From Solirubrobacterales bacterium (GTDB taxonomy: Bacteria; Actinomycetota; Thermoleophilia; Solirubrobacterales; Solirubrobacteraceae): a stretch of 52,519 bases of DNA. The position numbers were made by a program, and so were the translations under genes. Of the stretch, positions 1,748 through 27,459 are shown one piece after another; positions within the stretch are counted from its first letter, which is position 1; each line of letters begins with the position of its first letter. The DNA is taken from the NCBI GenBank assembly GCA_025963905.1, contig JAOPZW010000375.1, positions 1 to 52,519 on the forward strand, given 5' to 3'. A model generated the notes under the pieces. It saw only the letters and a list, made by a program, of their open reading frames with translations. It was not told where the DNA came from and searched no databases.

Positions 1748-4700
1748 CTAGCGCCTCAGGTTCTTCAGGAGGTGTCGCGTCGACTCCGCCGGGTCCGTCG
1801 ACAGCTCGGCCAGCGCGGCGCGGCAGCCACGGAAGCGCGCGATGACCTGGTCGTCCTGGCCCATCGCCGCGGCCACGCGCATGGCCAGCCGCCACGCGCT
1901 CTCCCGGTAGGGGTCTGACGCCAGGACGAGCTGGACCTGCTGCTCCGCGCGACCGAGGTCGCCGAGCTCGAAGGCCACTTCGGCGATGTCGAGGCTCGCG
2001 TCGGTAGCGAGCGACGCCAGGACCGCTCGGCGCTTGTCCACCCACGGCGACGTGACGCCCGGCAGGTAGTCGCCCGATGCCGTGAGCGCGAGGGCGTCAT
2101 CCAGGATCTCGATGCGCGCCGCGCCCCCTACCCGCGCGGCGCTCTGGACGAGCCGCTCGAGGCGCAGCCCGTCGCTGCTCAGGTGCTCATCGCGCCAGGC
2201 CACCTCCTCGGCGCCGACCTCGAGGGGCGCGTCGTCGGGCAGCACGTCCTTGAGGCGCGCCAACGCCTGGCGCACGTAGCTGCGGGCCGAGCCGTCGGTG
2301 CGGCCGTCGAACAGCTCGTCCAGCAGCGTCTGGCGGCTGGCTCGCCGTCGGTGCGTCGCCAGGTAGGCGAGCAGCTCGAGGCTCTTGCTGAGCTTCGGAT
2401 GCACCTCCTCGCCGTCGACGACGAGCGCCGGCGCTCCGAACTCGCGCACGTGCACGCGCGGCAGCAGAGCGACGTCGGAGAGCGCGCCCTCGGCCATCAG
2501 CGCGCGCCCGATCCGATGCCACGGGGAGTCGACGCCGGCCTCGGCGTCCAGCCGGCGCGCGACGACCGAGGGGAACTCGCGCAGCGCTTGGAGCAGCAGG
2601 TAGTTCGAGGCCTGACGCTGCGCCCCGGCCAGCGCCAGGTCGGCCGCGGCGTCGGCCGCGTCCTCGTCGCCCAGCCGCCACTCGGCCTCCGCGAGGTAGA
2701 CGCCGGCGGCCGGCAAAAAGAACAGGCGATCCCATTGCTGGAGGAGCGCCACTGCTCTGCGCAGGTGGACGCCGGCCTTGACCGCGTCGTCGTCGAGGAG
2801 GGCCATCAGCCCGCGCCACAGCTCGATCTGCTCCAGCGTGCGCAGCCGCCGGCGCGCCGTCGGATCGGCTTCGACCTTGGCCAGCGCGACCGCCGCCGCG
2901 GCCGTGTCGCGCCGCAGCCGGAGCGCGAGCATCGCCTCGAACAGGTAGTGCAACATGACGCTGAGCGCGCCGCTGCGACCGACCAGCTCGCGGCCTTCTC
3001 GCGCGGCCGCGTCGGCTTCGCCGTGCCGTCCGAGATCGGCCATGATCTCGCCGAACTGCCGCACCCGCGACGACGTCCAGCCGCTCGTCGAGGACTCCTG
3101 CAGCAGCGCCAGCGCCTCCTCGTGGCGGCCCACCGCGCGCAGCGCCTCGACGCGGCTGGAGCGCGCCGCGGCCCACGGGGTCGTCATCGGCTCGAGCAGG
3201 CGGTCGAAGCGTCCCTGGTAGAGGTCGAGCCGGGCCAGGAACCCGTGGAGCGCGGTGTGCTCCGGCCGGTCGCGGTAGTGGTGCCGGTCGTCGGCCATCG
3301 CCACGCCGAGCTGGAACCGCCACACGTCCCGGTCCGGGCCGGGCGGGAGGCGCTCGATCGTCTCGTAGGCGTCATCCAGGCGGCTGACATGCAGCAGGCA
3401 CATCGCCACCGCGCCGGCGGCGGCCGGGTCGAGCGGCGCGCCGGCGCTCAGCGCGAGCAGCCGGTCGGCCGCCTCGGCGCCGGCCTCGAACTCCTCGTGC
3501 TCCATCGCGACGACGAGCTCGGCGTAGGTCAGGACGCGGGAGCCGCGCACCACCGCCTCGCGGAACGCGCGCAGCCAGGACGACGCCACGGCGAAGTCGC
3601 GCCGCCGCAGCACGCCGGGCATCGCCCGCTCGCCGATCGCCTCGGCGGCGGCGACGTCGTCGGCCTCCAGGAACGCGGCGACCGCGTCGTCGGGACGCTC
3701 CTCCTCGGCCAAGAGGGCGCCGAGACGGCGGCGGAGCGCGCGCACCGTCGTCACGTCGAGCTCGCGCAGCCGTTGCTGCAGGAACTCGCGGAACCGCGGG
3801 TGGCACCGCATCTCGACGCCGTCGGCACCGAACGCGACGGGCGCGTGATGCGACCGCAGGCTCGCGAGCAGCGCGCCCGCGTCCGCGACGCCCAGCGCCT
3901 CGGCCCGCGCCGGCGTGACCTCGTCGAGCAGCGACGTGACGATCAGGAACCGCCGCTCGGCCGCGGGCAGCGTCGCCATGATCTCCGAGGAGAGGTAGCC
4001 GCTGAGCGGATCGGACTCGCCGCCGGCCCCGTGCGGGTGCGCGGGCGAGCGCCACGCCTCGAAGAGCACGCCGGCGACCCAGCCGCCGGTCGCCGCGACC
4101 GCGGTCTCGGCGTCGTCGGCCCGCTGGCCCAAGGCCGCCAGCGCGCCGGCGGCCTCCTCGAGCGTGAAGGCCAGGTCGGCCTCGGTCACCGCCGCGGCGC
4201 CCGCGTCGCGCGCGCCGCCGAGATGGAGCGGCACGTCGCGACGCGAGATGAGGATCACGCGCAGCGTCGGGGGCGCGAAGCGCAGGAACGCCCCGAGGGC
4301 GGCTTTGGCCTGGGGCGCGTCAACGAGGTGCTCGATCTCGTCGATCACGAGCGTCAGCTCGCGGGCGCCGACCGCCTCGGCCAGCAGGCCGGCGGCCTCG
4401 ACGTGGGTGACATCGTCGGCCAGCGCGACGGTGGCCGCGTCCGGCAGGCGGGGCAGCACGCGCGCCAGCGCGGACTCGAGGTAGGCGAGCAGCCGGCCCG
4501 GCGCGGCCTCCGACGCGTCGAGGGTCAGCCAGGCGACCGGCCGCGACGACGTCGCCACCGCCTCGACCACGGCGGTCGTCTTGCCCGCGCCGGCCGTCCC
4601 GCGGACCCAGACCAGGCTGGTCATCTCGGCCAGCTCGGCGATGCGCGACGCCAGCCGCGGTCGCGCCACCACCGATCCCCGCACCGACGGCGGACGGACC

Positions 4701-4789
4701 TTCGTGCTCAGCACGGTCACCGGCCAACCATGCCGGATTGCGGCCTTTCGCGCGGATTTCGCCGCCGGGCGTACGGTGGGAACCGACAC
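1748..4789 (-). CDS. Large STAND-type transcriptional regulator: MalT/LAL-like N-terminal P-loop ATPase, helical repeats, C-terminal winged-helix + BTAD (SARP-type) module
   Basis: 1013 aa. The N-terminus reads LSTKVRPPSVRGSVVARPRL followed by Walker A GTAGAGKTT. The C-terminus reads GAPALVVDGEEVHPKLSKSLELLAYLATHRRRASRQTLLDELF...YVRQALARLKDVL (wHTH), followed by a BTAD-like helical end (DPYRESAWRLAMRVAAAMGQDDQVIARF). GTG start at 4789. Confidence 0.8.
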   Translation of the reverse strand: MSVPTVRPAAKSARKAAIRHGWPVTVLSTKVRPPSVRGSVVARPRLASRIAELAEMTSLVWVRGTAGAGKTTAVVEAVATSSRPVAWLTLDASEAAPGRLLAYLESALARVLPRLPDAATVALADDVTHVEAAGLLAEAVGARELTLVIDEIEHLVDAPQAKAALGAFLRFAPPTLRVILISRRDVPLHLGGARDAGAAAVTEADLAFTLEEAAGALAALGQRADDAETAVAATGGWVAGVLFEAWRSPAHPHGAGGESDPLSGYLSSEIMATLPAAERRFLIVTSLLDEVTPARAEALGVADAGALLASLRSHHAPVAFGADGVEMRCHPRFREFLQQRLRELDVTTVRALRRRLGALLAEEERPDDAVAAFLEADDVAAAEAIGERAMPGVLRRRDFAVASSWLRAFREAVVRGSRVLTYAELVVAMEHEEFEAGAEAADRLLALSAGAPLDPAAAGAVAMCLLHVSRLDDAYETIERLPPGPDRDVWRFQLGVAMADDRHHYRDRPEHTALHGFLARLDLYQGRFDRLLEPMTTPWAAARSSRVEALRAVGRHEEALALLQESSTSGWTSSRVRQFGEIMADLGRHGEADAAAREGRELVGRSGALSVMLHYLFEAMLALRLRRDTAAAAVALAKVEADPTARRRLRTLEQIELWRGLMALLDDDAVKAGVHLRRAVALLQQWDRLFFLPAAGVYLAEAEWRLGDEDAADAAADLALAGAQRQASNYLLLQALREFPSVVARRLDAEAGVDSPWHRIGRALMAEGALSDVALLPRVHVREFGAPALVVDGEEVHPKLSKSLELLAYLATHRRRASRQTLLDELFDGRTDGSARSYVRQALARLKDVLPDDAPLEVGAEEVAWRDEHLSSDGLRLERLVQSAARVGGAARIEILDDALALTASGDYLPGVTSPWVDKRRAVLASLATDASLDIAEVAFELGDLGRAEQQVQLVLASDPYRESAWRLAMRVAAAMGQDDQVIARFRGCRAALAELSTDPAESTRHLLKNLRR

Positions 4790-4805
4790 CGAGATGGGTC
4801 CAGAA

Positions 4806-4841
4806 GCGGCGAGCGGGCCCTCCTCTCTGCCCGCTCGCCGC
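4806..4841. promoter_or_regulatory. 13-bp perfect inverted repeat (GCGGCGAGCGGGC - 10 nt CCTCCTCTCT - GCCCGCTCGCCGC) in the divergent region between the regulator and module 1
   Basis: Read directly. The arms are 4806..4818 and 4829..4841, and the spacer is 4819..4828. It lies 17 nt from the regulator start (4789) and 29 nt from the TTG at 4870. Confidence 0.4.
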
Positions 4842-4869
4842 CCTGCCCCGGACGCTGAAAGCCACCCAG

Positions 4870-5904
4870 TTGATCACGCCAGCCGACACCGAGTTCCACC
4901 CGCGCGACCCCTCGATCGCGAGCTGGACCGAGACCATGTTCATGATCTTCTCGGTCCCCGAGGCCAACATCCTGGGCAACGTCTACGTCCTGGCACGGCC
5001 GAACCTCGGCATCGCGACGTCGTCGATCATGGTCCAGCAGGGGTTCTGCCGCCAGCCGTACGAGATCGACTTCTGCGATCCGCAGGTGCACCTCGCCTGC
5101 CCGCCGTCGTTCCGCGACTTCTCGCTGGCCAACGGGCTGACTGTAGAAGTCACCAAGCCGCTGCTCGGCTATCGCATGTCCTACGCCGCGTCTTCGGGAG
5201 CCTGCGCGTTCGATCTCGACTTCGAGGCGTTGATGCCGCCGTTCGACATGCACGATCCCCGCGAGAACCCGCTGCACGTCGCCGGCGACGACTGGGCGGA
5301 GCCGCACAAGGCGACGACCGAGGCGACGAAGGGCCACTTCGACGTCGTGGGGCGCGTCACCGGCGAGTTCGAGCTGCGCGGGCGCCGCTACCGGGTCGAC
5401 TGCGTCGATGGGATGGACCACAGCTGGGGCCCCCGCTCGGAGGAGAGCGCGGGCACGGGTTCGCGCGCGGCCGCCTGGATGCACGTCACGTTCGGCGACG
5501 ACTTCGGGATGCATCTGGCAATGGCCCTGGACCTGCGCGACGGCGAGGTCGTCTACGACGGCCTGCGCTTCGGCTACGTCATGGACGGTCGCGAGGTCGT
5601 CGGCCTGGTCGAGGCCGACGTGCGCACCACCCGCGTCGACATGCTGGGCGTGAGCAACCACATCCAGGCGCGCGACGCGCGTGGGCGCGAGTACGAGTTC
5701 TTCGGGACGGCCGTGGCCGGCGCGCCCTGGTACTCGTTCAACCCCTGCTGCGTGTCGTTCCAGAGCCTGTACCGCTACCAGCACGAGGGCCGGGTCGGCT
5801 ACTGCGAGGGCGCGGACATCTTTGGGTTGAACTTCCTGGGCGAGCGCCTGTCGCGCCACTGCCGGGAACGGGGAGCGCCGGCGCTCGCGCCGACGACGTC
5901 GTAA
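4870..5904 (+). CDS. Uncharacterised beta-rich protein, module copy 1 (paralogue of 9093..10124)
   Basis: The TTG at 4870 is in frame with ORF 4738..5904. That start gives (M)ITPADTEFHPRDP, colinear with the paralogue's MITAADSEFHPRDP. The two share blocks LIFSVPEA.IL.NVYV.ARP.LG, GQGFCRQPYE(I/M)DF, GRVTGE..LRGRRY.VDC.D.MDHS(W/F)G.R and PWYSFNP. GC3-rich. Confidence 0.75.
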   Translation: MITPADTEFHPRDPSIASWTETMFMIFSVPEANILGNVYVLARPNLGIATSSIMVQQGFCRQPYEIDFCDPQVHLACPPSFRDFSLANGLTVEVTKPLLGYRMSYAASSGACAFDLDFEALMPPFDMHDPRENPLHVAGDDWAEPHKATTEATKGHFDVVGRVTGEFELRGRRYRVDCVDGMDHSWGPRSEESAGTGSRAAAWMHVTFGDDFGMHLAMALDLRDGEVVYDGLRFGYVMDGREVVGLVEADVRTTRVDMLGVSNHIQARDARGREYEFFGTAVAGAPWYSFNPCCVSFQSLYRYQHEGRVGYCEGADIFGLNFLGERLSRHCRERGAPALAPTTS

Positions 5905-5921
5905 GGACCGGGAGAGGGTCG

Positions 5922-7148
5922 ATGGGGGTCATGGAGATCACACGCGGCTGGGACTTCGCCCTGCTCGACGATCCGCCGCCGGACGTCGTCGAAGAGCTGC
6001 GCCGGCGCTATCCGGTCGAGCGCGAGACCGATCGCCAGCTCGTGCGCAAGCTGGGGCGGCGCGGCAGCGGGCCGTACGTGCCGGTGTCCCTGGAGGAGCT
6101 CAGCGACGCGGTCGCGAGGATGCTCGCCGACACGGTCGACGGCCCGTCCTCCATCACCAACGCCCGCTGGTTCACCGGGGGCGCGTCGAAGGTGCAGATG
6201 GGCTTCGACCTCGCGTGGCGGGACGCCGGCGGTCCGCGCCGGGACCGCCTCATGGTCCGCATGGATCCCGCCGAGTCGCACAACGCGACGAGCAAGCTGC
6301 GCGAGTTCGAGCTGCTGCGCGAGCTGCACGGGCGGATGCCGGTGCCCGAGGCCTTCTGGGTCGACGACGACGCGCTCTGGTTCCCGTATCCCGCGTTGGT
6401 GTACTCCTTGATCGACGGCATCGCCAAGCCGCGGGAGGGCGTCGGCGGCAAGGTCGTGGGGCTGGGCACGAACTTCGGGCCCGGCCTGCGTGAGCGGCTC
6501 GCGCCGCAGTACGTGGAGCACCTGGCGCGGATCCACACGCTCGACCTGCACGACGCCGAGCTGCCCAGCTTCGACGTGCCGGAGGTTGGCACGACCCAGA
6601 GCGCGCTCTGGGAGCTCAACCGCGCGCGGCGGCTGTGGGAGGAGGACCGCGGCGTCGACGTGCCGCTGATGGAGGTCGCCGGCAACTGGCTAGAGCGGAC
6701 GCTGCCGGTGCTCGACCACGTCGGCCTGGTCCACGGCGACTACCGCAGCGGCAACTTCCTCTACGACGAGGAGACGGCGCGCTTCACCGGCTGGCTGGAC
6801 TGGGAGCGCGCGCACCTCGGCGACCGCCACCGCGACCTCGCATGGTCGACGCAGCCCGTGTGCGGCCACTACGCCGAGGACGGCCGGACCTACCTCGTGT
6901 GCGGCCTCGTGCCGCTCGACGAGTTCTACGACAATTACTCGAAGTTGTCGGGGTTGACCGTCGACCCGGAGCGTCTGCGGTGGTATCGGGTCCTCAACGC
7001 CTACTCCATGGTCGCGAGCACCGTGGGCTCGGCGTGGCGCGTGGCGCGCCTGGGCAAGACGCACCAGGACATCCTCCTGGCGCGCGTCGAGGGCATGCGC
7101 GGCGTGGTGCTCGAAGAGCTGCGGACGTTGTTGGAGGAGGTGCTGTGA
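5922..7148 (+). CDS. APH-fold phosphotransferase (ACAD10/11 N-terminal / LvaA-like kinase family), module copy 1
   Basis: 408 aa starting at ATG 5922 (GGAGAGGG at 5911..5918). Catalytic-loop motif LVHGDYRSGNFLYDEE and metal-binding DWERAHLGDRHRDLAW are present. Colinear with 10121..11335. Confidence 0.85.
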   Translation: MGVMEITRGWDFALLDDPPPDVVEELRRRYPVERETDRQLVRKLGRRGSGPYVPVSLEELSDAVARMLADTVDGPSSITNARWFTGGASKVQMGFDLAWRDAGGPRRDRLMVRMDPAESHNATSKLREFELLRELHGRMPVPEAFWVDDDALWFPYPALVYSLIDGIAKPREGVGGKVVGLGTNFGPGLRERLAPQYVEHLARIHTLDLHDAELPSFDVPEVGTTQSALWELNRARRLWEEDRGVDVPLMEVAGNWLERTLPVLDHVGLVHGDYRSGNFLYDEETARFTGWLDWERAHLGDRHRDLAWSTQPVCGHYAEDGRTYLVCGLVPLDEFYDNYSKLSGLTVDPERLRWYRVLNAYSMVASTVGSAWRVARLGKTHQDILLARVEGMRGVVLEELRTLLEEVL

Positions 7149-7678
7149 TCGACGCGACCGACACGACGCTGCGGGCGTCGATCAAGGCGCTGCGGGACGT
7201 CGTCGCCCCGGCGCTCGACCCGGACGCGACCCAGGCGGCCGAGCAGCTGCGCCTGGTCGTCGACGCGCTCGACTTCCTGCGCCAGCGCGTCGGGCTGGTC
7301 GAGGAGCGCGAACTGTTCCTGCTCGAGCACGACCTCGCGCTCGCCCGGGCGGTCACCTCGCCCGCCGCGGCGTGCGCGCCCGCCTGCGCCGACGCGCTGG
7401 CCGCCGCGATCGCCCGCGCCGAGGACGTCCTGGCGCGCGCCGCCGTGCGACGCGCCGAGGTCGTCGAGGCCGGAGCGGCCCTCGGCGCCGCTCTGCGCGA
7501 GCTGATTCGCGACGCGGCGACGGCCGACCCGGCCGCGCGCGACGCGATCGAGCGCGCGACGGTTCGCGCCGCACGCGCGACCATCGCGGCCGACCGCGCC
7601 TGGTACCTGCCGCAGGGCTTCGACCCCGACCCGGGCGCGGTGCCGCCGATCGAGGCGGCGCTGGCGGTGCGCGAGTAG
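7145..7678 (+). CDS. All-helical partner protein of unknown function, module copy 1
   Basis: The GTG at 7145 overlaps the kinase stop (GTGA). 177 aa, Ala/Leu/Arg-rich, helical. It shares IKAL.DVVAP..DPD...EQL.LVVD.L and ERAWYLP.GFDP with 11332..11928. GC3-rich. Confidence 0.75.
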   Translation: MIDATDTTLRASIKALRDVVAPALDPDATQAAEQLRLVVDALDFLRQRVGLVEERELFLLEHDLALARAVTSPAAACAPACADALAAAIARAEDVLARAAVRRAEVVEAGAALGAALRELIRDAATADPAARDAIERATVRAARATIAADRAWYLPQGFDPDPGAVPPIEAALAVRE

Positions 7679-7839
7679 CGCGGGACGGGGCGAAGGGCGG
7701 CGACGTCCAGCACAGCTTCGCCGGCGGCGGGTCCAGCGGGCCGCCGGCGCTGGAGGGTTCCGCGACGCCGCCCCAAGTAGGGGCGGGCCGCCGCATGCCC
7801 GTGGAGCGATGGTCACGACAAGTACGGAGGAGACACGAC

Positions 7840-9072
7840 ATGAGGCACAAGCGATGGGCATCCCTGCTGACCCTGGTTGCGGCGGCGGGTGGGCTGGCGG
7901 CGTGCGGGTCGAGTCACGACGGCGGCTCGACCGGTTCGAGCGGCTCGAGCGGGGGCGGAGGCGCGGCGCTGAAGATCGCGCTCGTCCCGCCGACCGGCGG
8001 CGCGCTCGAGCAGCTCGGCAAGAACGCGGTGCGCGGCTGGCAGTATGCGGCGGCCGAGGCCAACGCGAAGGGCGGCATCGCCGGTCACAAGGTCGAGATC
8101 GTCACCAGCTCGACCGACGGCCAGCCGAACACGACGCTGCGCGCCGTGCGCAAGCTCGTGACGCAGAACGGCGCCAAGTACGTCAGCGGCATCGTGACCT
8201 CGCCGGAGGTCGGCGCGCTGCAGCAGCAGCTCCCGGCGCTCGGCGCGCTCGCCCTGCTCGGCGACGGCCAGGACGACGCGCTCACCGGCGCCAATTGCAA
8301 CGCCAACGCGTTCCGCGCGACGCAGTCGGCCTCGATGCTGCTGGCCGGCTTCCAGCAGATGCTCACCAAGTCCAAGGCGCAGAAGTGGGCGATCCAGGCG
8401 GTCGACTACTCGACCGGGCACACCGCGGCCAAGCTGTTCCAGACGGCGGCGGAGAAGGCGGGCAAGAAGGTCGTCCTCGTGCAGTTCGCGCCGCTGGGCA
8501 CGACCGACTTCGGGTCATACATCTCGAAGATCCGCGCATCGGGCGCCGACGGCTTCTTTGGCCTCGTCCCGTCGCTGGACGGCGTCGCCTTCATCAACCA
8601 GGCGTCGCAGTTCAAGCTCTTCGACACCTTCAAGTCGGTGTTCTCCTACAACATGGTCACCGAGCCCAATCTCCCGACGCTCGGTGCCAAGACCGTCGGC
8701 TTCCTGTCGAACCTCGGATACGACGAGTCCTCGACCAACCCCATGAACAAGTCGTTCGTCGCGGGGTTCCAGAAGCAGTTTGGCGGCGTGCCTGAGACGG
8801 TGGCGGCCGACAACTACCTCGCGGCGCAGCTGCTGTTCGCCGGCGTCAAGAAGGCCGGGAGCGTCGACCCGCAGAAGGTCAAAGCGGCCCTCGACGGCAT
8901 CTCGTTCGACTCGTTCGTCGGCCCCGTGACGATGGGCGCCGACCACCAGCTCGTGCGACCCGCCTACATCGCCGAGGTCGCCAAGGGCGGCGACGGCTAC
9001 GTCTTCAAGACCGTCGCCGCCATCCCCAGCAGCGTCACCCGCCCGACCCCCGACCAGGCTTGCAAGCTCTAG
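7840..9072 (+). CDS. LivJ/Peripla_BP_6-type ABC substrate-binding lipoprotein (SBP1)
   Basis: ATG 7840 is preceded by GGAGGA (7827..7832). Signal peptide with lipobox LAAC, then a Gly/Ser linker. Type-I PBP blocks are present (KIALVPPTGGALEQLGK, ANAKGGIAGHKV, FAPLGTTDFGSYISKI). Confidence 0.9.
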   Translation: MRHKRWASLLTLVAAAGGLAACGSSHDGGSTGSSGSSGGGGAALKIALVPPTGGALEQLGKNAVRGWQYAAAEANAKGGIAGHKVEIVTSSTDGQPNTTLRAVRKLVTQNGAKYVSGIVTSPEVGALQQQLPALGALALLGDGQDDALTGANCNANAFRATQSASMLLAGFQQMLTKSKAQKWAIQAVDYSTGHTAAKLFQTAAEKAGKKVVLVQFAPLGTTDFGSYISKIRASGADGFFGLVPSLDGVAFINQASQFKLFDTFKSVFSYNMVTEPNLPTLGAKTVGFLSNLGYDESSTNPMNKSFVAGFQKQFGGVPETVAADNYLAAQLLFAGVKKAGSVDPQKVKAALDGISFDSFVGPVTMGADHQLVRPAYIAEVAKGGDGYVFKTVAAIPSSVTRPTPDQACKL

Positions 9073-9092
9073 CGAGAGGCGACCACCACAAC

Positions 9093-10124
9093 ATGATCAC
9101 CGCAGCGGATTCCGAGTTCCACCCGCGGGACCCGGCGGACTGGCGCTGGACCGAGACGACCCCACTGATCTTCTCGGTCCCGGAGGCGGGCATCCTCGCC
9201 AACGTCTACGTCGCCGCCCGGCCGGGGCTCGGCGTGGCGCTCTCGTCGGTCGCGGTCGGCCAGGGCTTCTGCCGGCAGCCCTACGAGATGGACTTCACCG
9301 ACGCGCAGATGCACTTGCCGTGCCCGGAGTCGTTCCTGAAGTACTCGCTGCCCAACGGGTTGTCGGTGGAGTTGACGAAGGCGCCGACCGAGTACCGCTT
9401 CCGCTACGAGTACCAGCTGGGCGACGCGTGCCGGTTCGACGTCGAGTTCCAGGCGCTGCACGACCCGTTCGACGCGACCGACCCCGACCACAACCCGGCG
9501 CTGCTCACCACGGTGGGCAGCGCCGCCGACGAGCGGCTGGGAGACGAGTGGGGCAACGCGTCGGGCACGGGCGCGCCGGCCTTCCCCAAGGGCCATTACG
9601 AGATGATGGGCCGGGTCACCGGCGAGCTGTGGCTGCGCGGCCGGCGCTACGACGTCGACTGCTACGACGTGATGGACCACAGCTTCGGGACGCGGACCGA
9701 GACCAGCAAGCGGGCCGTGTCCTACATCTCGGCGGTGTTCGGCCCCGACTACGGCATCCACCTCGCGGTGCCGATGGAGGTGACCGCGGGGGAGACGGTC
9801 TACGACGGGTTCCGGCTCGGCTACGTCATGGAGGACGGCGAGCTGTTCGGCGTCACCGACGCGGAGGTCGTCGCGTCGTCGGGAACCGACATGCTCCCGA
9901 TGAACAGCCACATCCGCGCGACCGACGTGCGCGGCAAGGAGCACGAGCTGCACGGGGCGGCCCTGGCCGGGCACCCGTGGTACTCGTTCAACCCGTCGCA
10001 CGTCTGCTTCCAGAGCCTGATGCGCTGGCACCACGGCGACCGGGTCGGGTACGGCGAGAAGGGTGACATCTTCGGCCTGGAGTTCCTGGCCGAGCGCAAG
10101 TCCCGCCACGGGCGGCGGCGATGA
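9093..10124 (+). CDS. Uncharacterised beta-rich protein, module copy 2
   Basis: ATG 9093 lies 20 nt after the SBP1 stop, with GAGAGG upstream. 343 aa, colinear with 4870..5904. Confidence 0.85.
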   Translation: MITAADSEFHPRDPADWRWTETTPLIFSVPEAGILANVYVAARPGLGVALSSVAVGQGFCRQPYEMDFTDAQMHLPCPESFLKYSLPNGLSVELTKAPTEYRFRYEYQLGDACRFDVEFQALHDPFDATDPDHNPALLTTVGSAADERLGDEWGNASGTGAPAFPKGHYEMMGRVTGELWLRGRRYDVDCYDVMDHSFGTRTETSKRAVSYISAVFGPDYGIHLAVPMEVTAGETVYDGFRLGYVMEDGELFGVTDAEVVASSGTDMLPMNSHIRATDVRGKEHELHGAALAGHPWYSFNPSHVCFQSLMRWHHGDRVGYGEKGDIFGLEFLAERKSRHGRRR

Positions 10125-11335
10125 CGGTGGCCGGCGTCGACCGCGACCGGCCCACGGCGGCGTCCATCGACGAGATGCGCCGCCGCTTCCCGACCGAGCG
10201 CGAGACCGACGCGCTGCTGGTCCGCAAGCTCCAGCGCCGCGCCGGCCCGCCGTACCGCCGGATCGCCAAGGACGAGCTCTCAGCGTGCCTGCGCGCGATG
10301 TTCGCCGACACGCTGCCGGGCACGTTCGCGGTCTCCGACGAGCGCTGGTTCACCGGCGGCGTGTCGAAGATCCAGCTCGGGTTCACGCTGGAGTGGGACG
10401 ATCCCAAGCGCGGGCGGTCACGGGACCGGCTCATGGTGCGGATGGACCCGTCGGAATCGCTGAACGCGACGAGCCGCGTGCGGGAGTACGAGCTCCTGCG
10501 GGCCTTCGACGGCGTGCTCCCGGTCCCGCGGGTCTTCGGGCTGGATCCCGCCGGCCGCTGGTTCCCGGAGCCAGCATTGTTGTACGCCTTCGTGGACGGC
10601 GTGACGCGGCCGACCGGCGCGACCTCCGGCCAGGTCTCCGGGTTGGGCACCAATTTCGGGCCCGCGCTCCGGGGGCGACTCGCGCCGCAGTTCCTGGAGC
10701 ATCTGGCGCGCGTCCACACCTTCGACCACGCGTCGGCGGACCTCACGGCGCTGGACCTCCCGCGCGCGGGAACGACGGAGAGCGCGCTGTGGCAGCTCAA
10801 CCGGGCGCGGCGCGTCTGGGAGGAGGACCGCGCCGACGACCTGCCGCTCATGGAGGTGGCGGCCAATTGGATGCAGCGGAACCTGCCGACCACGGACGTC
10901 GTCAGCGTCGTCCACGGCGACTTCCGCAGCGGCAACTTCCTGTTTGACGAGGCCACCGGCGAGATCCGCGCCTGGCTGGACTGGGAGCGCGCGCACCTCG
11001 GCGACCGCCACCGCGATCTGGCCTGGACGACGCAGGCGCTCTTCGGCCACTACGGCGCGGGCGACGATCGCGGAACCTACTACGTGTGCGGCCTGCTGCC
11101 CGTCGACACGTTCTACGAGCGCTACGAGGAGGCGTCGCGGTTGGTGGTCGACCACGACGCGCTCGCGTTCTACCGGATCCTCAACTGCTACCAGATCGTC
11201 GTCTCCACGCTCGCGACGGCCTACCGCGTGGCGCGCCTCGGGAAGTCCCACCAGGACATCCTCCTCGCGCGCGTCAGGGGCGAGGTGCCGATCGTCATCG
11301 GGGAGCTGCGCGCATTGCTGAAGGAGCGCCTGTGA
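10121..11335 (+). CDS. APH-fold phosphotransferase (ACAD10/11-N/LvaA-like), module copy 2
   Basis: ATGA overlap with 9093..10124. Contains VVHGDFRSGNFLFDEA and DWERAHLGDRHRDLAW. 404 aa. Confidence 0.9.
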   Translation: MTVAGVDRDRPTAASIDEMRRRFPTERETDALLVRKLQRRAGPPYRRIAKDELSACLRAMFADTLPGTFAVSDERWFTGGVSKIQLGFTLEWDDPKRGRSRDRLMVRMDPSESLNATSRVREYELLRAFDGVLPVPRVFGLDPAGRWFPEPALLYAFVDGVTRPTGATSGQVSGLGTNFGPALRGRLAPQFLEHLARVHTFDHASADLTALDLPRAGTTESALWQLNRARRVWEEDRADDLPLMEVAANWMQRNLPTTDVVSVVHGDFRSGNFLFDEATGEIRAWLDWERAHLGDRHRDLAWTTQALFGHYGAGDDRGTYYVCGLLPVDTFYERYEEASRLVVDHDALAFYRILNCYQIVVSTLATAYRVARLGKSHQDILLARVRGEVPIVIGELRALLKERL

Positions 11336-11928
11336 CCGCCAACCACATCCACAACGGTCTGGGGGCCGCGATCAAGGCGCTGCTCGACGTCGTCGCGCCG
11401 AGTGTCGACCCCGACGACCCGCTGGCCCACGAGCAGCTCCAGCTCGTCGTCGACTACCTCGAGCTCGTCCGCTCGCGCACCGACCTGATCTGGGACCGCG
11501 AGCGCCTGACGCTGCGCCACTACCTCGCGATGGCCGACGCGGTCGGGCCGTCCGTGTCGACGTGGCTGGACGGCGCGGCCTCCGCGGGCCGGCGCGCGCT
11601 CGGCGACGCCGACGCCGGTGTGCGTCCGCTGCGCGACGCGGCCGCCGAGCTGGCTGGCGCGCTCTCCGAACTCGTCCGGGCGCTCGGCGAGCCCGACGCC
11701 GACCCGGCGCTGTGCGCCCGCGTCGAGGTCGTCGTCGTCGACGCCAGCCAGGTCCTCGTGGACGTCGAGCGGGCGTGGTACCTGCCGCTCGGCTTTGACC
11801 CAGCGGCCGCAGAAGTGGGTTCGGTCGAAGCTGCGCTGCAGCACGCCACGGCCGAGCTCGACCGCGGTCCTCAGCCTGCCCTCTACCAGGGCGAGGGCCC
11901 CGGCACCGCACCCCAAGCACCTCGCTGA
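11332..11928 (+). CDS. All-helical partner protein, module copy 2
   Basis: The GTG at 11332 overlaps the kinase stop (GTGA), the same junction as copy 1. 198 aa with the conserved blocks listed for 7145..7678. Confidence 0.75.
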   Translation: MTANHIHNGLGAAIKALLDVVAPSVDPDDPLAHEQLQLVVDYLELVRSRTDLIWDRERLTLRHYLAMADAVGPSVSTWLDGAASAGRRALGDADAGVRPLRDAAAELAGALSELVRALGEPDADPALCARVEVVVVDASQVLVDVERAWYLPLGFDPAAAEVGSVEAALQHATAELDRGPQPALYQGEGPGTAPQAPR

Positions 11929-12108
11929 CCCGCCGCGCAGCTCGACGAGCGGTCGAAACGACCGCACCCGCCGCAGCCCGAATCCTCTGGCGTAGGCCCA
12001 ACCGCGGGCGAAGACGCGAAGGCACGTTATCCCGAGTCGCTCTCCTCGGCGCTGCCTGCGCGCTGCTCTGCACTCGGACCGGGAAGGAACCGACCGGCCC
12101 GCCTCGGC

Positions 12109-12124
12109 ATGCGCTGCAGCGCAT
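12109..12124. promoter_or_regulatory. 16-bp perfect palindrome ATGCGCTGCAGCGCAT in the 354-bp non-coding gap upstream of the GntR gene
   Basis: Read directly. This is the longest intergenic region in the window and has no GC3 coding signal. Confidence 0.3.
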
Positions 12125-12282
12125 CGCGCCAGACGTTGTTCCACGCGCGGCTGGCAGCTCGTGATGCACACCCGTCGCGAACGCTGCGCCCATTTCGACG
12201 CCTCCCGCGATCGTTGTGGGCTTCTCCAACGGGGCGCGGCGGGCGCGCCCGGCGCGGTGAACGCCGTTGTTAGGGTGGCGCG

Positions 12283-13068
12283 GTGAGTGGAGCATCGAGC
12301 ACACGGACGCTGACCGCGCGACGGGTCGCCGGACGCCGCGGACGCGACGATGGCACCGCCCGGCGGCTGCGGGACGTGCTGCGCCACAACATCGTGGCGG
12401 GGGTCTACCCCGACGGGCTCCTTCCCGGCGAGGCCGAGTTGATGGTGGCCTACGGCGCGCGCCGCGCGGCGGTCCGCGAGGCCCTTTCGATGCTGCGCCG
12501 CGAGCGCCTGGTCGAGCGTGTCCAGGGGATCGGCACGTTCTCGATCTGCGAGCAGCGCTACGCCTCGACGTTCGAGGAGATGCACGGCCACGTGGACGCG
12601 GACGCGGTCAGCCGTCGCGCCCGGCCGCAGATCCTGGAGCGCGCGGTGATCGCCGCGCCCGACGCGGTCGCGCACAAGCTCGGGATCGCGCCCGGCGAGC
12701 CGGTGGTGCTCCTGGAGTACCTGGGCTTCGTGGACGGCGTCGCGGTCTGGCTCGCCAGCAACTACGTCAAGCTCCCGCAGGGCGCGCCGCTGCTCGCCGC
12801 CGCGTTCGAGTCCGAGTGGTACGCCCTGCTCGCGTCGGCGGGCCTGCGCGTCGGGGGTTCGGAGTGGCACCTCAGCGCGGTGAACGTCGACGACGCGGTG
12901 GCCGAGCTGCTGGACGTCCCGTCGGGCACCGCGGTGATGCTCGCCGAGGAGCTGATCTGGGACGAGCAGGGCGAGGTGTATGACTTCGCCGTCTGCTACT
13001 TCCGCTCGGACCGGCACTGCTTCGTCTCCGCCGCCGGTCGGTTCGCGATGCGCGAAGCGTCCGCCTGA
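12283..13068 (+). CDS. GntR-family transcriptional regulator (HutC/UTRA-type effector domain)
   Basis: N-terminal wHTH LPGEAELMVAYGARRAAVREALSMLRRERLVERVQGIGTF, followed by a UTRA-like C-terminal domain. GTG 12283 is preceded by TAGGGT (12271..12276) plus 6 nt, a leaderless-type arrangement. Confidence 0.85.
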   Translation: MSGASSTRTLTARRVAGRRGRDDGTARRLRDVLRHNIVAGVYPDGLLPGEAELMVAYGARRAAVREALSMLRRERLVERVQGIGTFSICEQRYASTFEEMHGHVDADAVSRRARPQILERAVIAAPDAVAHKLGIAPGEPVVLLEYLGFVDGVAVWLASNYVKLPQGAPLLAAAFESEWYALLASAGLRVGGSEWHLSAVNVDDAVAELLDVPSGTAVMLAEELIWDEQGEVYDFAVCYFRSDRHCFVSAAGRFAMREASA

Positions 13069-13942: not shown

Positions 13943-15181
13943 ATGCGAGAGGAGAGCACGTTGAGGTACAAGATCGCGGCAGCGCCGCTCGCGCTGCTGC
14001 TCGCGGCCGGGATGGCCGCCTGCGGGTCGTCGTCGCACGGCGGTGGGTCGAGCGGCGACGGCCCCGTGACCGTCGCGCTGATCCCGCCGCTCAGCGGCGC
14101 GCTCGGGCAGTTCGGCAAGGACACCGTGACCGCCTGGCAGTTCGCGGCCGACCAGGCCAACGCCAAGGGCGGCATCGACGGCCACGAGGTCAAGATCGTC
14201 ACGACCGCGACCGACGGGTCGCCGGGCACGACCGTCCGCCTCGCCCGCCAGGCCGTCGCCCAGCACGGCGCGCACTTCATCGGCGCGGTCATGACCGGAC
14301 CCGAGAACTCCGCGCTACAGAAGCAGCTGCCGGCGATGAACGCGCTCTCGTTCAACGGCACGGCCAACGACGACGTGCTCAACGAGGGCGAGTGCAGCGC
14401 CAACGCGTTCCGCGCGGTCCAGTCCGCGCAGATGGACATGAACGGGATCGTCAACACCCTCAAGTCGCTGCCCGGCGACAAGTGGGCGATCCAGGCGGTG
14501 GACTACTCGATCGGCCACAGCTCCGCCGACGCGTTCAAGGCCGCGGCGGCCAAGGCCGGCAAGCAGGTCGTGCTGACGCAGTTCGCGCCGCTCGGGACCA
14601 GCGACTTCGGGTCCTACATCACCAAGTTGAAGAGCAGTGGCGCCGACGCGCTGTTCAGCGTCACCTACGGCGCCGACGCGATCGCGCTCATCAACCAGGG
14701 CGCGCAGTTCAAGCTCTTCGACCAGTTCAAGACCGTCCTGGGCTTCAACCAGGTCTCCGAGCCGCTGTTCCCCGCCCTCGGCAAGAAGATCGATGGGTTC
14801 TACAACCAGGTCAACTACGACGTGGACGCGAGCAACGCGGACAACAAGGCCTTCGTCGCCGCGTGGACCAAGAAGTACGGGTCGCCGCCCTACTACGTCC
14901 CGGCGGATACCTACCTCGCCGCGCAGATGCTGTTCAAGGGCATCGAGCGGGCGCACAGCACCGACCCGCAGAAGGTCAAGGTCGCGCTGGGTGGCCTGTC
15001 GTTCGACAGCATCGCCGGGAAGGTGACGGTGCGGCCGCAGGACCACCAGCTGCTGCGCGCGTCCTACGTCGGCCAGGTCGTGCCCAAGACCGGCGGGCCC
15101 GGCGGCCTCGGGTTCAAGATCGTGGCGGAGACGCCGGCCAAGGTGACCACGCCCGCGGCGAGCCCGTCGTGCAAGTTGTAG
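13943..15181 (+). CDS. LivJ/Peripla_BP_6-type ABC substrate-binding lipoprotein (SBP2)
   Basis: Lipobox MAAC. Colinear with SBP1 and SBP3. An alternative start is TTG 13961, which has GAGAGGAGAG 5 nt upstream and gives MRYKIAAAPL..., parallel to the SBP1 N-terminus. Confidence 0.88.
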   Translation: MREESTLRYKIAAAPLALLLAAGMAACGSSSHGGGSSGDGPVTVALIPPLSGALGQFGKDTVTAWQFAADQANAKGGIDGHEVKIVTTATDGSPGTTVRLARQAVAQHGAHFIGAVMTGPENSALQKQLPAMNALSFNGTANDDVLNEGECSANAFRAVQSAQMDMNGIVNTLKSLPGDKWAIQAVDYSIGHSSADAFKAAAAKAGKQVVLTQFAPLGTSDFGSYITKLKSSGADALFSVTYGADAIALINQGAQFKLFDQFKTVLGFNQVSEPLFPALGKKIDGFYNQVNYDVDASNADNKAFVAAWTKKYGSPPYYVPADTYLAAQMLFKGIERAHSTDPQKVKVALGGLSFDSIAGKVTVRPQDHQLLRASYVGQVVPKTGGPGGLGFKIVAETPAKVTTPAASPSCKL

Positions 15182-16947: not shown

Positions 16948-17982
16948 CTACCGGTGAACCCTCCCGAGCGCGCGCGGACCGTAGGCGTACGTGCTGCTAC
17001 GTGTGAGGGCGAACTCGAAGATGCCGATGCCCTGTTGCCCAGACCACTCGAACGCGGTCAGGCGATCGGTCAGCGCGGTGTCGACGGTCTTCGGGGTCAC
17101 GGAGCCGTCGAGCGGATAGACGTCGTGCTCGAGGTGGTCGCGGCCGAGGGGCTTGCCGTGGTGGCCGCCGTAGCCGGCTCCCGCCATGTAGCCGCCGCCG
17201 GCACGGGCGTCGGCGTCGAGGGTGTAGGCCTTGCCCGAGGCGGTGGTCACCTCGACGCGGCCGCCCACGAGATCCAGGTTGTCGTCGAACTCCAGGTCGT
17301 GGCCGACGTCGACGATCGGATCGACGCTGCCGTCGGCGAGCATGACGCCGCCCTCCAGGAGCAGGCGGCTGTGGTCGCGGCCCTCGACGAGGAGGAAGCC
17401 GACGGCGCGGTCGGCGAACTCCGCCTGGTACCAGATGTGCAGGCCCTGGCCGCCCGACATGGTCCGGATGCCGCGCGAGCGATCGCGCACGCCCCACCAG
17501 CCGTCGACCGCGACGGCCGCGCTGTCCAGCGTGAGCGTGCCCTCGTAGCGACCGGGCTGGAAGAGGTGGTCGAACGCCGCGGTGGTCACGTCCCCCTGCT
17601 TGACGTTGACCTCGTCGTACCAGGCCCCGCCGCTCGCGCGCCAGACGAGGTCGAACTCCACGTTGGTGGGGTTGGGCCCGAGCGCGACGTGCCACGCGGT
17701 CATGGGCTCGACCACGTCATAGGAGAACGGGCCGGCGCCGCGGCCGTCGGTCGCGCTGAGCTCGGTCGAGAACCGGACGTTGCGCTGCTCGCCGCCAGTT
17801 GTCACGACGACGAACCCGTCGGCCACGTCCTTGCGCGGGTGGACGCCGAACCCGAAGAGGATCGATGGGTCAGTGCCGGCGCCCGCCGGCGGATGCAGGT
17901 TGAAGACGAAGCGGTCGAAGAAGCGCTCGTGCAGGCTGGGCGCGTCCTTGCGGACCAACGCATCGTGGAACCCGGCCATCAC
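16948..17982 (-). CDS. Third, divergent member of the beta-rich protein family
   Basis: 344 aa. [30 protein letters not shown] aligns with GRVTGEFELRGRRYRVDCVDGMDHSWGPR of 4870..5904. It is followed by a similar W/F-rich block ([10 protein letters not shown] vs WMHVTFGDD). ATGA overlap with the upstream B12-binding gene. Confidence 0.8.
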
Positions 17983-18404
17983 GCCACCCGCACCGCGACG
18001 ACGGCGGACCCGATGAAGTCGATGATGTCCTGCGTCGGCGCGCCCGGCGTGAAGACCTCGGCAACCCCGAGGTCCTTCAGCGGCGCGATGTCGTCGTTGG
18101 GGATCGTGCCCCCGACCGTGACGAGGACGTCGTCGATGCCCTGCTCCTTGAGCAGCTGCACGATGCGGGGCACCAGCGTCATGTGGGCCCCGGAGAGGAT
18201 CGACAGCCCGACGGCGTCGGCGTCCTCCTGGATGACGGTCTCGACGATCTGCTCCGGGGTCTGGTGCAGCCCGGTGTAGATCACCTCCATGCCGGCGTCG
18301 CGCAAGGCGCGCGCGATGATCTTGGCTCCGCGGTCGTGGCCGTCGAGACCCGGCTTGGCGACGACGACGCGGATCTTGCGCTGAGGAGGTGCGGCAGCGG
18401 CCAT
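17979..18404 (-). CDS. Stand-alone cobalamin (B12)-binding domain protein (acyl-CoA mutase small-subunit type)
   Basis: 141 aa. Contains [36 protein letters not shown] (the DxHxxG B12 motif) and ...GLSILSGAH...VTVGGTIP. Confidence 0.9.
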
Positions 18405-18429: not shown

Positions 18430-18456
18430 TCAGGACGCCAGGTGAGGGAGGCCAGG

Positions 18457-19194
18457 ATGCGCGACATCGCGCTCGTCGACACGTTCAACCTGCGCGACCT
18501 CGGCGGCTATCCCACGGTCGACGGCCGGCATGTCCGCTGGCGGCGCCTCTTCCGCGGCGCCGGGCTGCAGCGCCTGGACGGGGACGACCTGGAGATGGTG
18601 CGGGCGCTCGGCATCGTCACCGCGATCGACCTGCGCACCGACGGCGAGGTCGAGGCCACCGGCACCTACCCGGTCGGCCGGCTGCCCGCGACGTTCCACC
18701 ACCTGCCGATGATCGAGCGCATCTGGGACCTCGACGGTCTGGACCCCGGCGCGCTGGCCCACGATTACCTCGTGGACCGCTACCGCGACATGCTCGCGGA
18801 GGGCGCGCCGACCATCGCCACCATCATGGACCTCCTGACCCGCCCGGGCGCGCTCCCCGCCGCGTTCTACTGCGCCGCCGGCAAGGACCGGACCGGCGTG
18901 CTCGCGGCCCTCGTCCTGGGCGCGCTGGGCGTGGAGCCGGCCGCGATCGTCGCCGACTACCACCTGTCCAAGGAGCGGGTCGAGCGCATCCGGGCGCGTG
19001 CTCTCGCGGCGTCCGGCGCCGGCGCATCGGCGATGGTCGCCCAGCCGCCCGCGTTCATGCAGGCGCCGGCCGAGACGATGCAGCTGCTGCTGGCGTGGAT
19101 CGACGAGGTCCACGGCTCGACGCCGGGCTACCTCGCCTCGATCGGCGTCGCGCCGGCGACCGTCGACGCGCTGCGGGCCGCGCTGCTGGGGTGA
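18457..19194 (+). CDS. Protein-tyrosine/dual-specificity phosphatase-fold protein (Y_phosphatase3-like)
   Basis: CX5R active-site loop YCAAGKDRTG. N-terminal NLRDLGGY block. ATG 18457 is preceded by GAGGGAGG. Confidence 0.85.
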   Translation: MRDIALVDTFNLRDLGGYPTVDGRHVRWRRLFRGAGLQRLDGDDLEMVRALGIVTAIDLRTDGEVEATGTYPVGRLPATFHHLPMIERIWDLDGLDPGALAHDYLVDRYRDMLAEGAPTIATIMDLLTRPGALPAAFYCAAGKDRTGVLAALVLGALGVEPAAIVADYHLSKERVERIRARALAASGAGASAMVAQPPAFMQAPAETMQLLLAWIDEVHGSTPGYLASIGVAPATVDALRAALLG

Positions 19195-27448: not shown

Positions 27449-27459
27449 GCCCGCCACTA

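Follow-up and report, generated by a model that had tools for sequence, protein, structure and literature searches.

We infer that two three-gene operons in the 52.5-kb stretch of DNA that we analysed (the window) each encode a module for the ATP-dependent dehydration of an alcohol. In this proposal, to which we give a probability of about 0.55, a kinase (K) would act first, a phospho-lyase (A) would follow, and a helical protein (H) would be the kinase's obligate partner. An earlier reading of the letters alone (the sequence-only reading) had called these genes the window's best candidate for an undescribed enzymatic system. The conserved and coupled triad has held up, but the idea of wholly undescribed chemistry has not, because A is related to 25-phosphosteroid lyase (25-PSL). 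And since this closest solved relative works with an APH-like kinase, 25-HSK, the triad is most probably a new version of the known dehydration by kinase and phospho-lyase.

GC3 frame analysis and ORF calls gave two colinear triads in the order A-K-H, at 4870-7678 and 9093-11928. These genes, and some others in the window, are as follows:

1751-4789, divergent from copy 1: BTAD/AAA regulator
4870-5904, + strand: A1, DUF7065+DUF7064 beta-barrel protein, predicted phospho-lyase of copy 1 (344 aa, TTG start)
5922-7148, + strand: K1, APH-fold small-molecule kinase of copy 1 (408 aa)
7145-7678, + strand: H1, helical partner of copy 1 (177 aa, GTG start)
7840-9072, + strand: LivJ-type solute-binding protein (Pfam Peripla_BP_6, E = 4e-66)
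9093-10124, + strand: A2, DUF7065+DUF7064 beta-barrel protein, predicted phospho-lyase of copy 2 (343 aa)
10121-11335, + strand: K2, APH-fold kinase of copy 2 (404 aa, ATG start)
11332-11928, + strand: H2, helical partner of copy 2 (198 aa, GTG start)
13961-15181, + strand: second LivJ-type binding protein (Pfam Peripla_BP_6, E = 1.5e-69)
16948-17982, - strand: third DUF7064 protein, a bona fide member of the Rv3169 family (NCBIfam Rv3169_fam, 188.6 bits; cut-off 150)
20787-21947 and 26378-27457: acyl-CoA dehydrogenases (ACADs)

In both copies, the GTG start of H overlaps the stop of K, and the GTGA overlaps that the sequence-only reading reported at 7145 and 11332 can be read directly from the sequence. 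A2 and K2 overlap as well (ATGA, with the ATG of K2 on the stop of A2). The three proteins do align end to end between the copies, with 54% identity for A (E = 2e-128), 58% for K (E = 8e-171), and 42% for H (E = 1e-29; all by BLASTP). The DNA of the two copies is only ~68% identical, so they are not an assembly artefact. Furthermore, A2 and K2 are closer to their orthologues in proteobacterial MAGs (67-74% identity) than to A1 and K1. The two triads are therefore, to judge from these comparisons, old paralogues, which agrees with the original view of an old, retained duplication.

The three families occur together far beyond this genome, as had been suspected. In a census seeded with A, which counted loci with at least 5 kb of flank on each side, K and H were found in 42 of 42 loci. 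Starting from H instead, all six loci had K as the next gene upstream and, upstream of K, an A-family gene (in one of these loci, L003, the A gene is fragmented). The coupling of K and H is also seen almost everywhere: 64 of 67 K-H junctions overlap, by 4 or 1 nt. In most operons, A comes before K, and the orders K-H...A and H-A-K are seen too. The hosts belong to the Actinomycetota and the Alpha-, Beta-, and Gammaproteobacteria. Many of them are bacteria of soil or water, and several copies often share a locus. On a Rhodococcus ruber plasmid (the one annotated RefSeq record that we inspected), the operon is annotated as hypothetical, phosphotransferase family, and hypothetical.

The sequence-only reading could not place the beta-rich protein of ~345 aa, but A does have a family. 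A1 (DUF7064, 47 bits; DUF7065, 36.5 bits) and A2 (56.2 and 30.5 bits) both exceed the Pfam gathering cut-offs (24.7 bits for DUF7064 and 27 bits for DUF7065). Our literature search found no paper on either domain. The AF2 model of A2 (pLDDT 92) has an AttH-like fold, and its top five Foldseek matches in the PDB are all 25-PSL (including 9g4c, 9fzn, and 9g2i; E = 1e-13, TM = 0.65). The two proteins are only ~16% identical in sequence. Among PDB sequences, 25-PSL is again the best match to a profile of A, with a marginal E of 0.025, and the match lies at a D-x-S-W-G-x-R motif that is common to both (D-H-S-W-G-x-R in A1). We considered whether A1 and A2 belong to the Rv3169 family itself (NCBIfam NF053593), but they score 36.9 and 16.3 bits against a curated cut-off of 150, so they are a sister subfamily. 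When we compared the A subfamily (A2) to the Rv3169-like subfamily with hhalign, the probability was 97.9% (E = 4e-13). The Rv3169-family protein at 16948-17982 matches 25-PSL (9fzn) with E = 2.4e-18 by phmmer, and by these alignments it is the sequence link from A1 and A2 to the lyase. Taken together, the alignments and the model indicate that A is a homologue of 25-PSL, via the Rv3169 family.

Some AttH-like enzymes are hydratases or pericyclases, which act without a kinase, and this counts against reading A as a lyase. The next-best fold matches for A2 are kievitone hydratase and AttH (E = 5e-9 to 3e-8, TM ~0.53), and Fsa2, Phm7, and related [4+2] pericyclases match as well (E = 1e-7 to 4e-6, TM = 0.46-0.53). 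If the order of the steps were reversed, A would be a hydratase, similar to carotenoid 1,2-hydratase or kievitone hydratase, that converts an alkene to a tertiary alcohol, and K and H would then phosphorylate this alcohol for another purpose (for example, activation for substitution, trapping, or export). The position of A ahead of K in most operons would suit this order of events, but the gene order varies. Also, 25-PSL is clearly a better match than the hydratases are, and the chain of homology through the Rv3169 family ends at 25-PSL. Finally, the known AttH-type hydratases have no link to a kinase, and no AttH-like hydratase or pericyclase is known to depend on one. So we consider a hydratase unlikely.

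The sequence of K is that of an intact kinase with the APH fold, of the ACAD10/11 or Rv3168 type. Both K1 (E = 1.9e-22) and K2 (E = 7.7e-22) match Pfam's APH, and both have the catalytic motifs (HGDYRSGN and DWE, at residues 271 and 293 of K1; HGDFRSGN and DWE, at residues 265 and 287 of K2), with the Brenner motif and the metal-binding Asp retained. By phmmer, K matches 9o56 (E = 3.5e-11), the kinase domain of ACAD11 (7e-6), and 3dxp (1.3e-5) in the PDB, and the homology to these three takes in the C-terminal helical region; Rv3168 is another match. K also matches 9fsg (E = 1.3e-9), an "aminoglycoside phosphotransferase-like protein" of 379 aa that we suspect is 25-HSK. Might K instead be a resistance kinase, similar to the phosphotransferases for aminoglycosides, macrolides, or capreomycin, with A and H as accessory proteins? 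There are weak matches to the NCBIfam models for APH(3'), Mph, and Cph, but these are far under the curated cut-offs (the best, APH_3p, gives 42.5-43.5 bits where 205 is needed). Moreover, the genes around the triads suggest uptake and catabolism, and inactivating a drug would not explain the obligate link to H and to a lyase-like enzyme. We think that a role in drug or xenobiotic resistance is very improbable.

H is the only member of the triad without any known relative, and here the sequence-only reading was right that a helical protein of ~180-200 aa could not be placed. H1 is not in any Pfam or NCBIfam family above cut-off. The AF2 model of H2 has six helices (pLDDT 93), and against the PDB, H2 had neither a sequence match nor a fold match (best E = 0.18). 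Nevertheless, public data hold 1,121 clusters of the family (at 50% identity).

What might the triads act on? As the sequence-only reading described, copy 1 is divergent from a large STAND/BTAD regulator (1751-4789), and LivJ-type lipoproteins are interleaved with the copies. The binding protein at 7840-9072 ends 20 nt upstream of A2 and has an N-terminal sequence (...LAACGSS) that reads as a lipoprotein signal; it is likely the protein that delivers copy 2's substrate. It and the one at 13961-15181 are ~53% identical paralogues, and they probably belong to one uptake system. There is a further paralogue at 33813-35072, and the only set of LivHMGF permease and ATPase genes in the window is at 35185-38541. 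The same order, with a binding protein followed by A-K-H, is found in two metagenome loci (L084 and L085), and in L085 the operon continues with LivGFHM. SDR-A-K-H operons are found in Novosphingobium and in Sterolibacteriaceae. More broadly, the genes around triads include TRAP, TTT, and LivJ-type binding proteins, TonB receptors, SDRs, CoA transferases or ligases, ECH, and ACADs. This context bears on another fold relative of A. If A were a pericyclase or cyclase like Fsa2 or Phm7, acting on a phosphorylated intermediate, then the triad could belong to a natural-product pathway, and BTAD/STAND regulators are frequent in the biosynthetic clusters of actinomycetes. However, neither the window nor the recurrent neighbours include a PKS, an NRPS, or a terpene synthase, the neighbours are importers and enzymes of the beta-oxidation type, and the TM scores of the pericyclases are lower. 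This explanation seems far-fetched to us.

The ACADs suggest a different division of labour. K and H could be a 4-hydroxyacyl-CoA kinase, as in the Lva and ACAD10/11 pathways, with an ACAD from the island eliminating the phosphate and A as, for example, a lipocalin-like carrier or isomerase. K does match ACAD11's kinase domain and 3dxp, a kinase with a small downstream partner mirrors LvaA and LvaB, and the window and many related loci do encode ACADs, SDRs, CoA ligases, and ECH. But neither triad in the window has an ACAD beside it (the closest is ~9 kb away), and only 15 of ~78 related loci have an ACAD cluster, while A is never missing. Also, elimination of phosphate is what 25-PSL, the closest solved relative of A, does. 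We doubt that an ACAD does this work.

Returning to dehydration by K and A, we propose that the neighbouring binding-protein-dependent transporter would import a small organic acid and that K would phosphorylate a hydroxyl group on this acid or on its CoA thioester. A would then eliminate the phosphate, which would create a C=C bond, and the alkene could be processed by the island's enoyl-CoA hydratases, dehydrogenases, and other enzymes of the beta-oxidation type. In effect, a hydroxyl that is not open to direct oxidation (e.g., a tertiary or gamma-hydroxyl) would be removed or relocated. H would be co-translated with the kinase in stoichiometric amounts as its obligate partner, as LvaB is for LvaA, and it may add substrate-binding residues or tether the kinase to the lyase so that a labile phosphoester is passed on. 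Each copy has its own binding protein beside it, and the two copies probably serve two related substrates. Our best reading is that the substrate is a non-steroid hydroxy acid or hydroxyacyl-CoA.

How does the triad compare to known systems? Kievitone hydratase, the CrtC-type hydratases, and Fsa2/Phm7 share the two-barrel fold of A, with weaker TM scores (0.46-0.56). In Mycobacterium tuberculosis, Rv3168 and Rv3169 are in one operon (PMC5340868), so that, as in the triad, the gene for an APH kinase adjoins a DUF7064-family gene. That operon is repressed by Rv3167c. In the Rv3169-type pairs from Nocardia and Gordonia (L046 and L022), the kinase gene is ahead of the DUF7064-family gene, and in three such pairs that we checked (L022, L038, and L046), there is no H-family ORF beside the kinase.

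In the levulinate catabolism of Pseudomonas putida, LvaA phosphorylates 4-hydroxyvaleryl-CoA and requires the small protein LvaB (PMC6692424). K belongs to the same APH subgroup as LvaA, ACAD10, and ACAD11. LvaB is encoded directly after its kinase, as H is, but the likeness is an analogy only, and LvaB is a 12-kDa protein while H is 18.5-21 kDa. An SDR, like LvaD, is often within the triad operon. In the Lva pathway and in the mammalian ACAD10/ACAD11 pathway for 4-hydroxyacyl-CoAs, a hydroxyl is relocated via a phosphoester, as we propose for the triad, but the elimination is performed by an enzyme with the acyl-CoA dehydrogenase fold, instead of the AttH-like lyase that we propose.

Another of the most similar systems is that of Sterolibacterium denitrificans, where 25-HSK acts together with a separate lyase, which eliminates the phosphate, to dehydrate a tertiary alcohol of a steroid (PMC8449060) during the anaerobic degradation of the side chain of cholesterol. 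25-PSL is close to the Rv3169-like subfamily, while A falls outside of it. 25-HSK is monomeric and is active alone, without a partner like H, and its gene is not linked to that of 25-PSL, while the triad is a tightly coupled operon; so neither H nor the operon has a precedent in the steroid system. Nor does the window contain a molybdopterin enzyme, such as the Mo-dependent C25/C26 steroid hydroxylases with which the steroid system is associated, or any steroid-catabolic genes, and its neighbouring genes suggest small organic acids or acyl-CoAs. Yet both systems combine an APH-fold kinase with an AttH-like protein of the DUF7064 type, and we propose that the triad follows the same logic: phosphorylation, and then elimination of the phosphate to give an alkene.

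The duplicated three-gene module in this window is a real and widespread operon that has not been described as such. The sequence-only reading had claimed two colinear copies with a GTGA overlap at each kinase-partner junction and had taken them for an old, retained duplication. Both claims stand, and it was also correct about the flanking genes. Its interpretation needs to be revised in one respect: the operon is real, widespread, and coupled, but one of the proteins that it could not place, A, now has a characterized relative. The genes of the two triads, and the gene between them, are:

4870-5904, A1, beta-barrel protein with DUF7065 and DUF7064 (copy 1)
5922-7148, K1, APH-fold kinase (copy 1)
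7145-7678, H1, small helical partner (copy 1)
7840-9072, LivJ-type binding protein between the two triads
9093-10124, A2, beta-barrel protein with DUF7065 and DUF7064 (copy 2)
10121-11335, K2, APH-fold kinase (copy 2)
11332-11928, H2, small helical partner (copy 2)

The window has a G+C content of about 72%, and its gene calls rest on third-position GC frame analysis, which supports all six triad genes, on the same strand. The GTGA overlap is found at K1/H1 and K2/H2, and A2 and K2 overlap by ATGA. Between copies, the proteins align from end to end with 54% (A), 58% (K), and 42% (H) identity, while the DNA is about 68% identical. Orthologs from proteobacterial MAGs (67-74%) are closer to A2 and K2 than A1 and K1 are. 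In the nearest genome that we found, a Baekduia sp. MAG, a K-H pair, a binding protein, and an A-K-H triad occur in the window's order with protein identities of 73-92% (92% for A), although no A gene of copy 1 was recovered from that genome. Given the end-to-end alignments, the diverged DNA, the closer proteobacterial orthologs, and the shared order in Baekduia, the duplication is real and old.

We scanned one genome per GTDB species with an alignment of A as the seed and used local profiles of the three families to search the 76 loci that were returned. Both K and H were present in all 42 of the loci that have at least 5 kb on either side of A. When contexts were seeded with H instead, K was directly upstream of H, and an A-family gene was upstream of K, in six of six cases (in one of these, locus L003, the A gene is fragmented). 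So the three families do co-localize outside this genome. A-K-H is the usual order; the variants are K-H separated from A by a transporter insert of 1-4 kb, and H-A-K. Overlaps of 4 nt (31 cases) and of 1 nt (33 cases) account for nearly all of the 67 K-H junctions. The hosts include actinobacterial types (Rhodococcus, Nocardia, Gordonia, Nocardioides, Curtobacterium, Baekduia, Solirubrobacteraceae, and Streptosporangiaceae) along with Mesorhizobium, Paracoccus, Novosphingobium, Rubrivivax, Hydrogenophaga, Variovorax, Sterolibacteriaceae, Solimonas, and Porticoccaceae. At about a dozen loci, at least two copies of the triad fall within 20 kb, so the multi-copy organization of the window is recurrent. 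In one annotated record, a RefSeq plasmid of Rhodococcus ruber, the genes are labeled hypothetical protein, phosphotransferase family protein, and hypothetical protein. Clustering all neighboring ORFs, whose calls come from a basic GC3-based picker and are noisy, gave no universal fourth partner: the next most frequent families reach about 24 of 78 loci at most.

A scan that is seeded with A is blind to K-H pairs that lack A. Divergent pairs without an adjacent A are present at 4432-6181 (-) of locus L001 and at 10702-12290 (-) of L003 (coordinates are internal to each locus). One of them adjoins a Zn-ADH and the other a MaoC dehydratase. The pairing of kinase and partner is therefore broader than the triad.

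K matches the APH family of Pfam (PF01636, E ~1e-22) and retains both catalytic motifs, HGD[YF]RSGN and DWE. Among solved structures it is closest to 9o56, 9fsg, the ACAD11 kinase domain, 3dxp, and Rv3168, and by homology it falls in the subgroup that includes 4-hydroxyacyl-CoA kinases. We ruled out that K is a resistance kinase, as its scores against the resistance kinases of NCBIfam are far under the cut-off.

The sequence-only reading could not place A in any characterized family, and this no longer holds. A passes the Pfam thresholds for both DUF7065 and DUF7064. A PDB search with the single sequence of A2 gave nothing meaningful, but the top five PDB matches of its AF2 model (pLDDT 92, pTM 0.90) are all the 25-phosphosteroid lyase (25-PSL) of Sterolibacterium denitrificans (9g4c, 9fzn, and 9g2i; E 1e-13, TM 0.65). 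The next matches are to kievitone hydratase, to AttH, and to the pericyclases Fsa2/Phm7. The sequence link between A and 25-PSL is indirect, through the Rv3169-like subfamily, and we consider this homology argument to be solid. Specifically, the profile of the A subfamily matches that of the Rv3169-like subfamily (97.9% probability, E 4e-13), and the Rv3169-family protein encoded in the window (16948-17982), which scores 188.6 bits where the cut-off is 150, matches 25-PSL at E 2.4e-18. A, the Rv3169-like group, and 25-PSL also have in common the motif D-x-S-W/F-G-x-R (D195 to R201 of A2). Literature searches found no publication on DUF7064 or DUF7065 (PF23212, PF23213) or on PDB entries 9FSG, 9O56, 9FZN, and 9G4C.

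H, on the other hand, was said to lie outside any characterized family, and we agree. It is all-helical, with six helices (model pLDDT 93), and is predicted to be soluble and acidic. Its conserved blocks are IKAL.DVVAP near the N-terminus and ERAWYLP.GFDP near the C-terminus. We could assign no Pfam or NCBIfam family to it; it has no sequence relative in the PDB (a single-sequence search with H2 gave nothing meaningful); its profile matched only designed helical bundles and coiled coils in the PDB; and Foldseek with the H2 model found no fold match there (best E 0.18). H1 had sub-threshold matches to encapsulin shell proteins in both Pfam and NCBIfam. These we rejected, because their scores (17.3 and 15 bits) are below the cut-off, they are absent in H2, and they do not suit an all-helical fold. 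A word-indexed search found 52 clusters of H at 90% identity, and an exhaustive profile search found 1121 representatives at 50% identity with E <=1e-3, or 716 with E <=1e-10. Nearly all of these homologs are stand-alone proteins of 160-200 aa. Judging from these searches, H is a genuine family, though it has no Pfam entry.

By its gene content, the window is a large catabolic island. It encodes six enoyl-CoA hydratases, two acyl-CoA dehydrogenases, several SDRs and Zn-ADHs, an HMG-CoA-lyase-like enzyme, three AMP-dependent ligases, MaoC-type hydratases, an amidase, a Rieske dioxygenase, an extradiol dioxygenase, and an FAA hydrolase. Its three LivJ-type binding proteins (7840-9072, 13961-15181, and 33813-35072) are paralogs that are 51-62% identical, and it has a single LivHMGF permease/ATPase set (35185-38541), which suggests that one importer serves several related substrates. 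A scan of 4600-12500 for promoters and terminators was uninformative, with no promoters and with terminators at chance level; a search of the window against Rfam gave no RNA family. A 116-aa ORF at 1371-1721 matches only the C-terminal end of FGGY/BadF-type ATPases and is likely a gene remnant. The unusually long tRNA-Asp (94 nt, 1543-1636) that ARAGORN called within this ORF is probably a false positive.

Other triads, which are often multi-copy, also lie beside acid importers and acyl-CoA enzymes. The recurrent carboxylate importers are TRAP DctPQM, TctC, LivJ/ABC, SBP_bac_5, and TonB receptors, and the recurrent enzymes are family III CoA transferases, CoA ligases, enoyl-CoA hydratases, acyl-CoA dehydrogenases, and aldehyde and alcohol dehydrogenases. 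An operon from a metagenome (L085) reads SBP-A-K-H-LivG-LivF-LivH-LivM-SBP-ECH, and its arrangement of solute-binding protein and A is that of copy 2. In Novosphingobium and Sterolibacteriaceae, an SDR gene immediately precedes A, and a Rhodobiaceae MAG has SDR-DctPQM-H-A-K. Phosphatases (SurE, Y_phosphatase3, and HAD) recur as well and may clear dead-end phosphoesters. A Y_phosphatase3 member lies between two triads on a metagenome contig (L002, 6484-7278), and the window has one at 18442-19194 (+).

The best-supported reading is that the triad is a kinase/phospho-lyase pair for ATP-dependent dehydration, a chemistry that is suggested by the characterized structural relative of A. From the folds, homology, motifs, and conserved, coupled operon that we observed, we infer an order of reactions, a lyase activity for A, a role for H, and a class of substrate. 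K together with H would phosphorylate a hydroxyl group, and A would then eliminate the phosphate to give an alkene. Because uptake systems and acyl-CoA enzymes surround the triads, the substrate would be a small hydroxy acid or its CoA ester, rather than a steroid. The SDRs within some operons suggest that, in those lineages, a ketone is first converted to the hydroxyl, the step that LvaD carries out in the levulinate pathway of Pseudomonas putida. H would be a kinase subunit in the way that LvaB is one for LvaA, because the overlap of K and H is nearly universal and is kept even where a transporter insert displaces A. We speculate that H might bridge the two enzymes or channel the intermediate. 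This is attractive because the tertiary phosphoester made by the 25-hydroxysteroid kinase (25-HSK) of S. denitrificans is a high-energy compound, and the reaction of this kinase runs freely in both directions (PMC8449060).

More broadly, we give a probability of roughly 45% to the idea that A-K-H is a widespread and unrecognized class of three-component ATP-dependent alcohol dehydratases, with an APH-type kinase, an obligate helical subunit whose fold is absent from the PDB, and a phospho-lyase of the AttH-like type. It would let soil and water bacteria, from two phyla or more, remove or relocate non-oxidizable (e.g., tertiary) hydroxyls on imported organic acids. If so, then kinase/lyase chemistry that is known from one anaerobic steroid degrader would be a general catabolic strategy, and a coupled operon in dozens of genera would suggest that it is common for non-steroid substrates. 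DUF7064/DUF7065 proteins would also gain their first functional prediction, as would the H family and, by extension, the Rv3168-Rv3169 operon of M. tuberculosis, for which the reading offers a concrete hypothesis. Two DUFs would become testable enzymes, as would a helical family that comprises about 1,100 clusters and has no Pfam family, and the cognate binding proteins beside the triads provide an experimental route to the substrates.

Kinases and DUF7064 proteins occur in other arrangements too. The Rv3169-family protein of the window, its third DUF7064 protein, is coupled by TGATG to a B12-binding small subunit (16948-18404, -), and the Y_phosphatase3-family gene is divergent from this pair. 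The stand-alone B12-binding subunit has the DGHDRG motif that is typical of the small subunits of acyl-CoA mutases; the window contains no mutase large subunit for it, and no kinase adjoins the pair. Rv3168/Rv3169-type pairs, with an ACAD11-like APH kinase and then an Rv3169-family protein, are found less than 10 kb from triads in Nocardia and Gordonia (L046, 2827-4939; L022, 16218-18381), so two related kinase/lyase systems appear to co-reside in these loci. L038 and L019 have similar-looking, lower-scoring pairs of kinase and DUF7064 protein. On a plasmid of Methylibium petroleiphilum PM1 (L081; NC_008826.1, 452058-453056), a DUF7064 homolog that is 31% identical to A2 lies within a bacterial microcompartment locus (BMC shell proteins, EutJ, and aldehyde dehydrogenase). 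It adjoins a HAD hydrolase and a pyruvate-phosphate-dikinase-like protein in place of an APH kinase, so the same lyase chemistry may be combined with another phosphorylating enzyme.

In S. denitrificans, 25-HSK and a separate phosphate-eliminating lyase convert a non-oxidizable tertiary alcohol to an alkene, which lets the neighboring carbon be hydroxylated (PMC8449060). The chemistry that we propose for the triad is alike, but the system is not the same. A shares only about 16% identity with 25-PSL and falls outside the Rv3169-like subfamily. Also, 25-HSK works by itself as a monomer, and the genes for it and for the lyase are unlinked, unlike those of the coupled triad. The window contains no Mo-hydroxylase or steroid genes. 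Locus L003 does have a molybdopterin oxidoreductase (Molybdop_Fe4S4, Molybdopterin, and Molydop_binding; 3075-5330, -) about 3 kb from its triad, which recalls the Mo-hydroxylases that partner 25-HSK/25-PSL, but this is a single case. We rejected a link to steroids on the locus of a Sterolibacteriaceae MAG (L076), as there were no steroid-pathway families among the matches. There, an SBP_bac_5 protein is divergent from an SDR-A-K-H operon, with alpha/beta-hydrolases and housekeeping genes on the flanks; another locus, L062, looks alike, judging from the size and order of its ORFs. The Lva and ACAD10/11 pathways follow the same logic as 25-HSK/25-PSL with another eliminating enzyme (PMC6692424). 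The triad is similar to LvaAB but has no ACAD-type eliminating enzyme, and H is likened to LvaB by analogy only. Finally, the uncharacterized Rv3168-Rv3169 operon (PMC5340868) is a sister of the triad.
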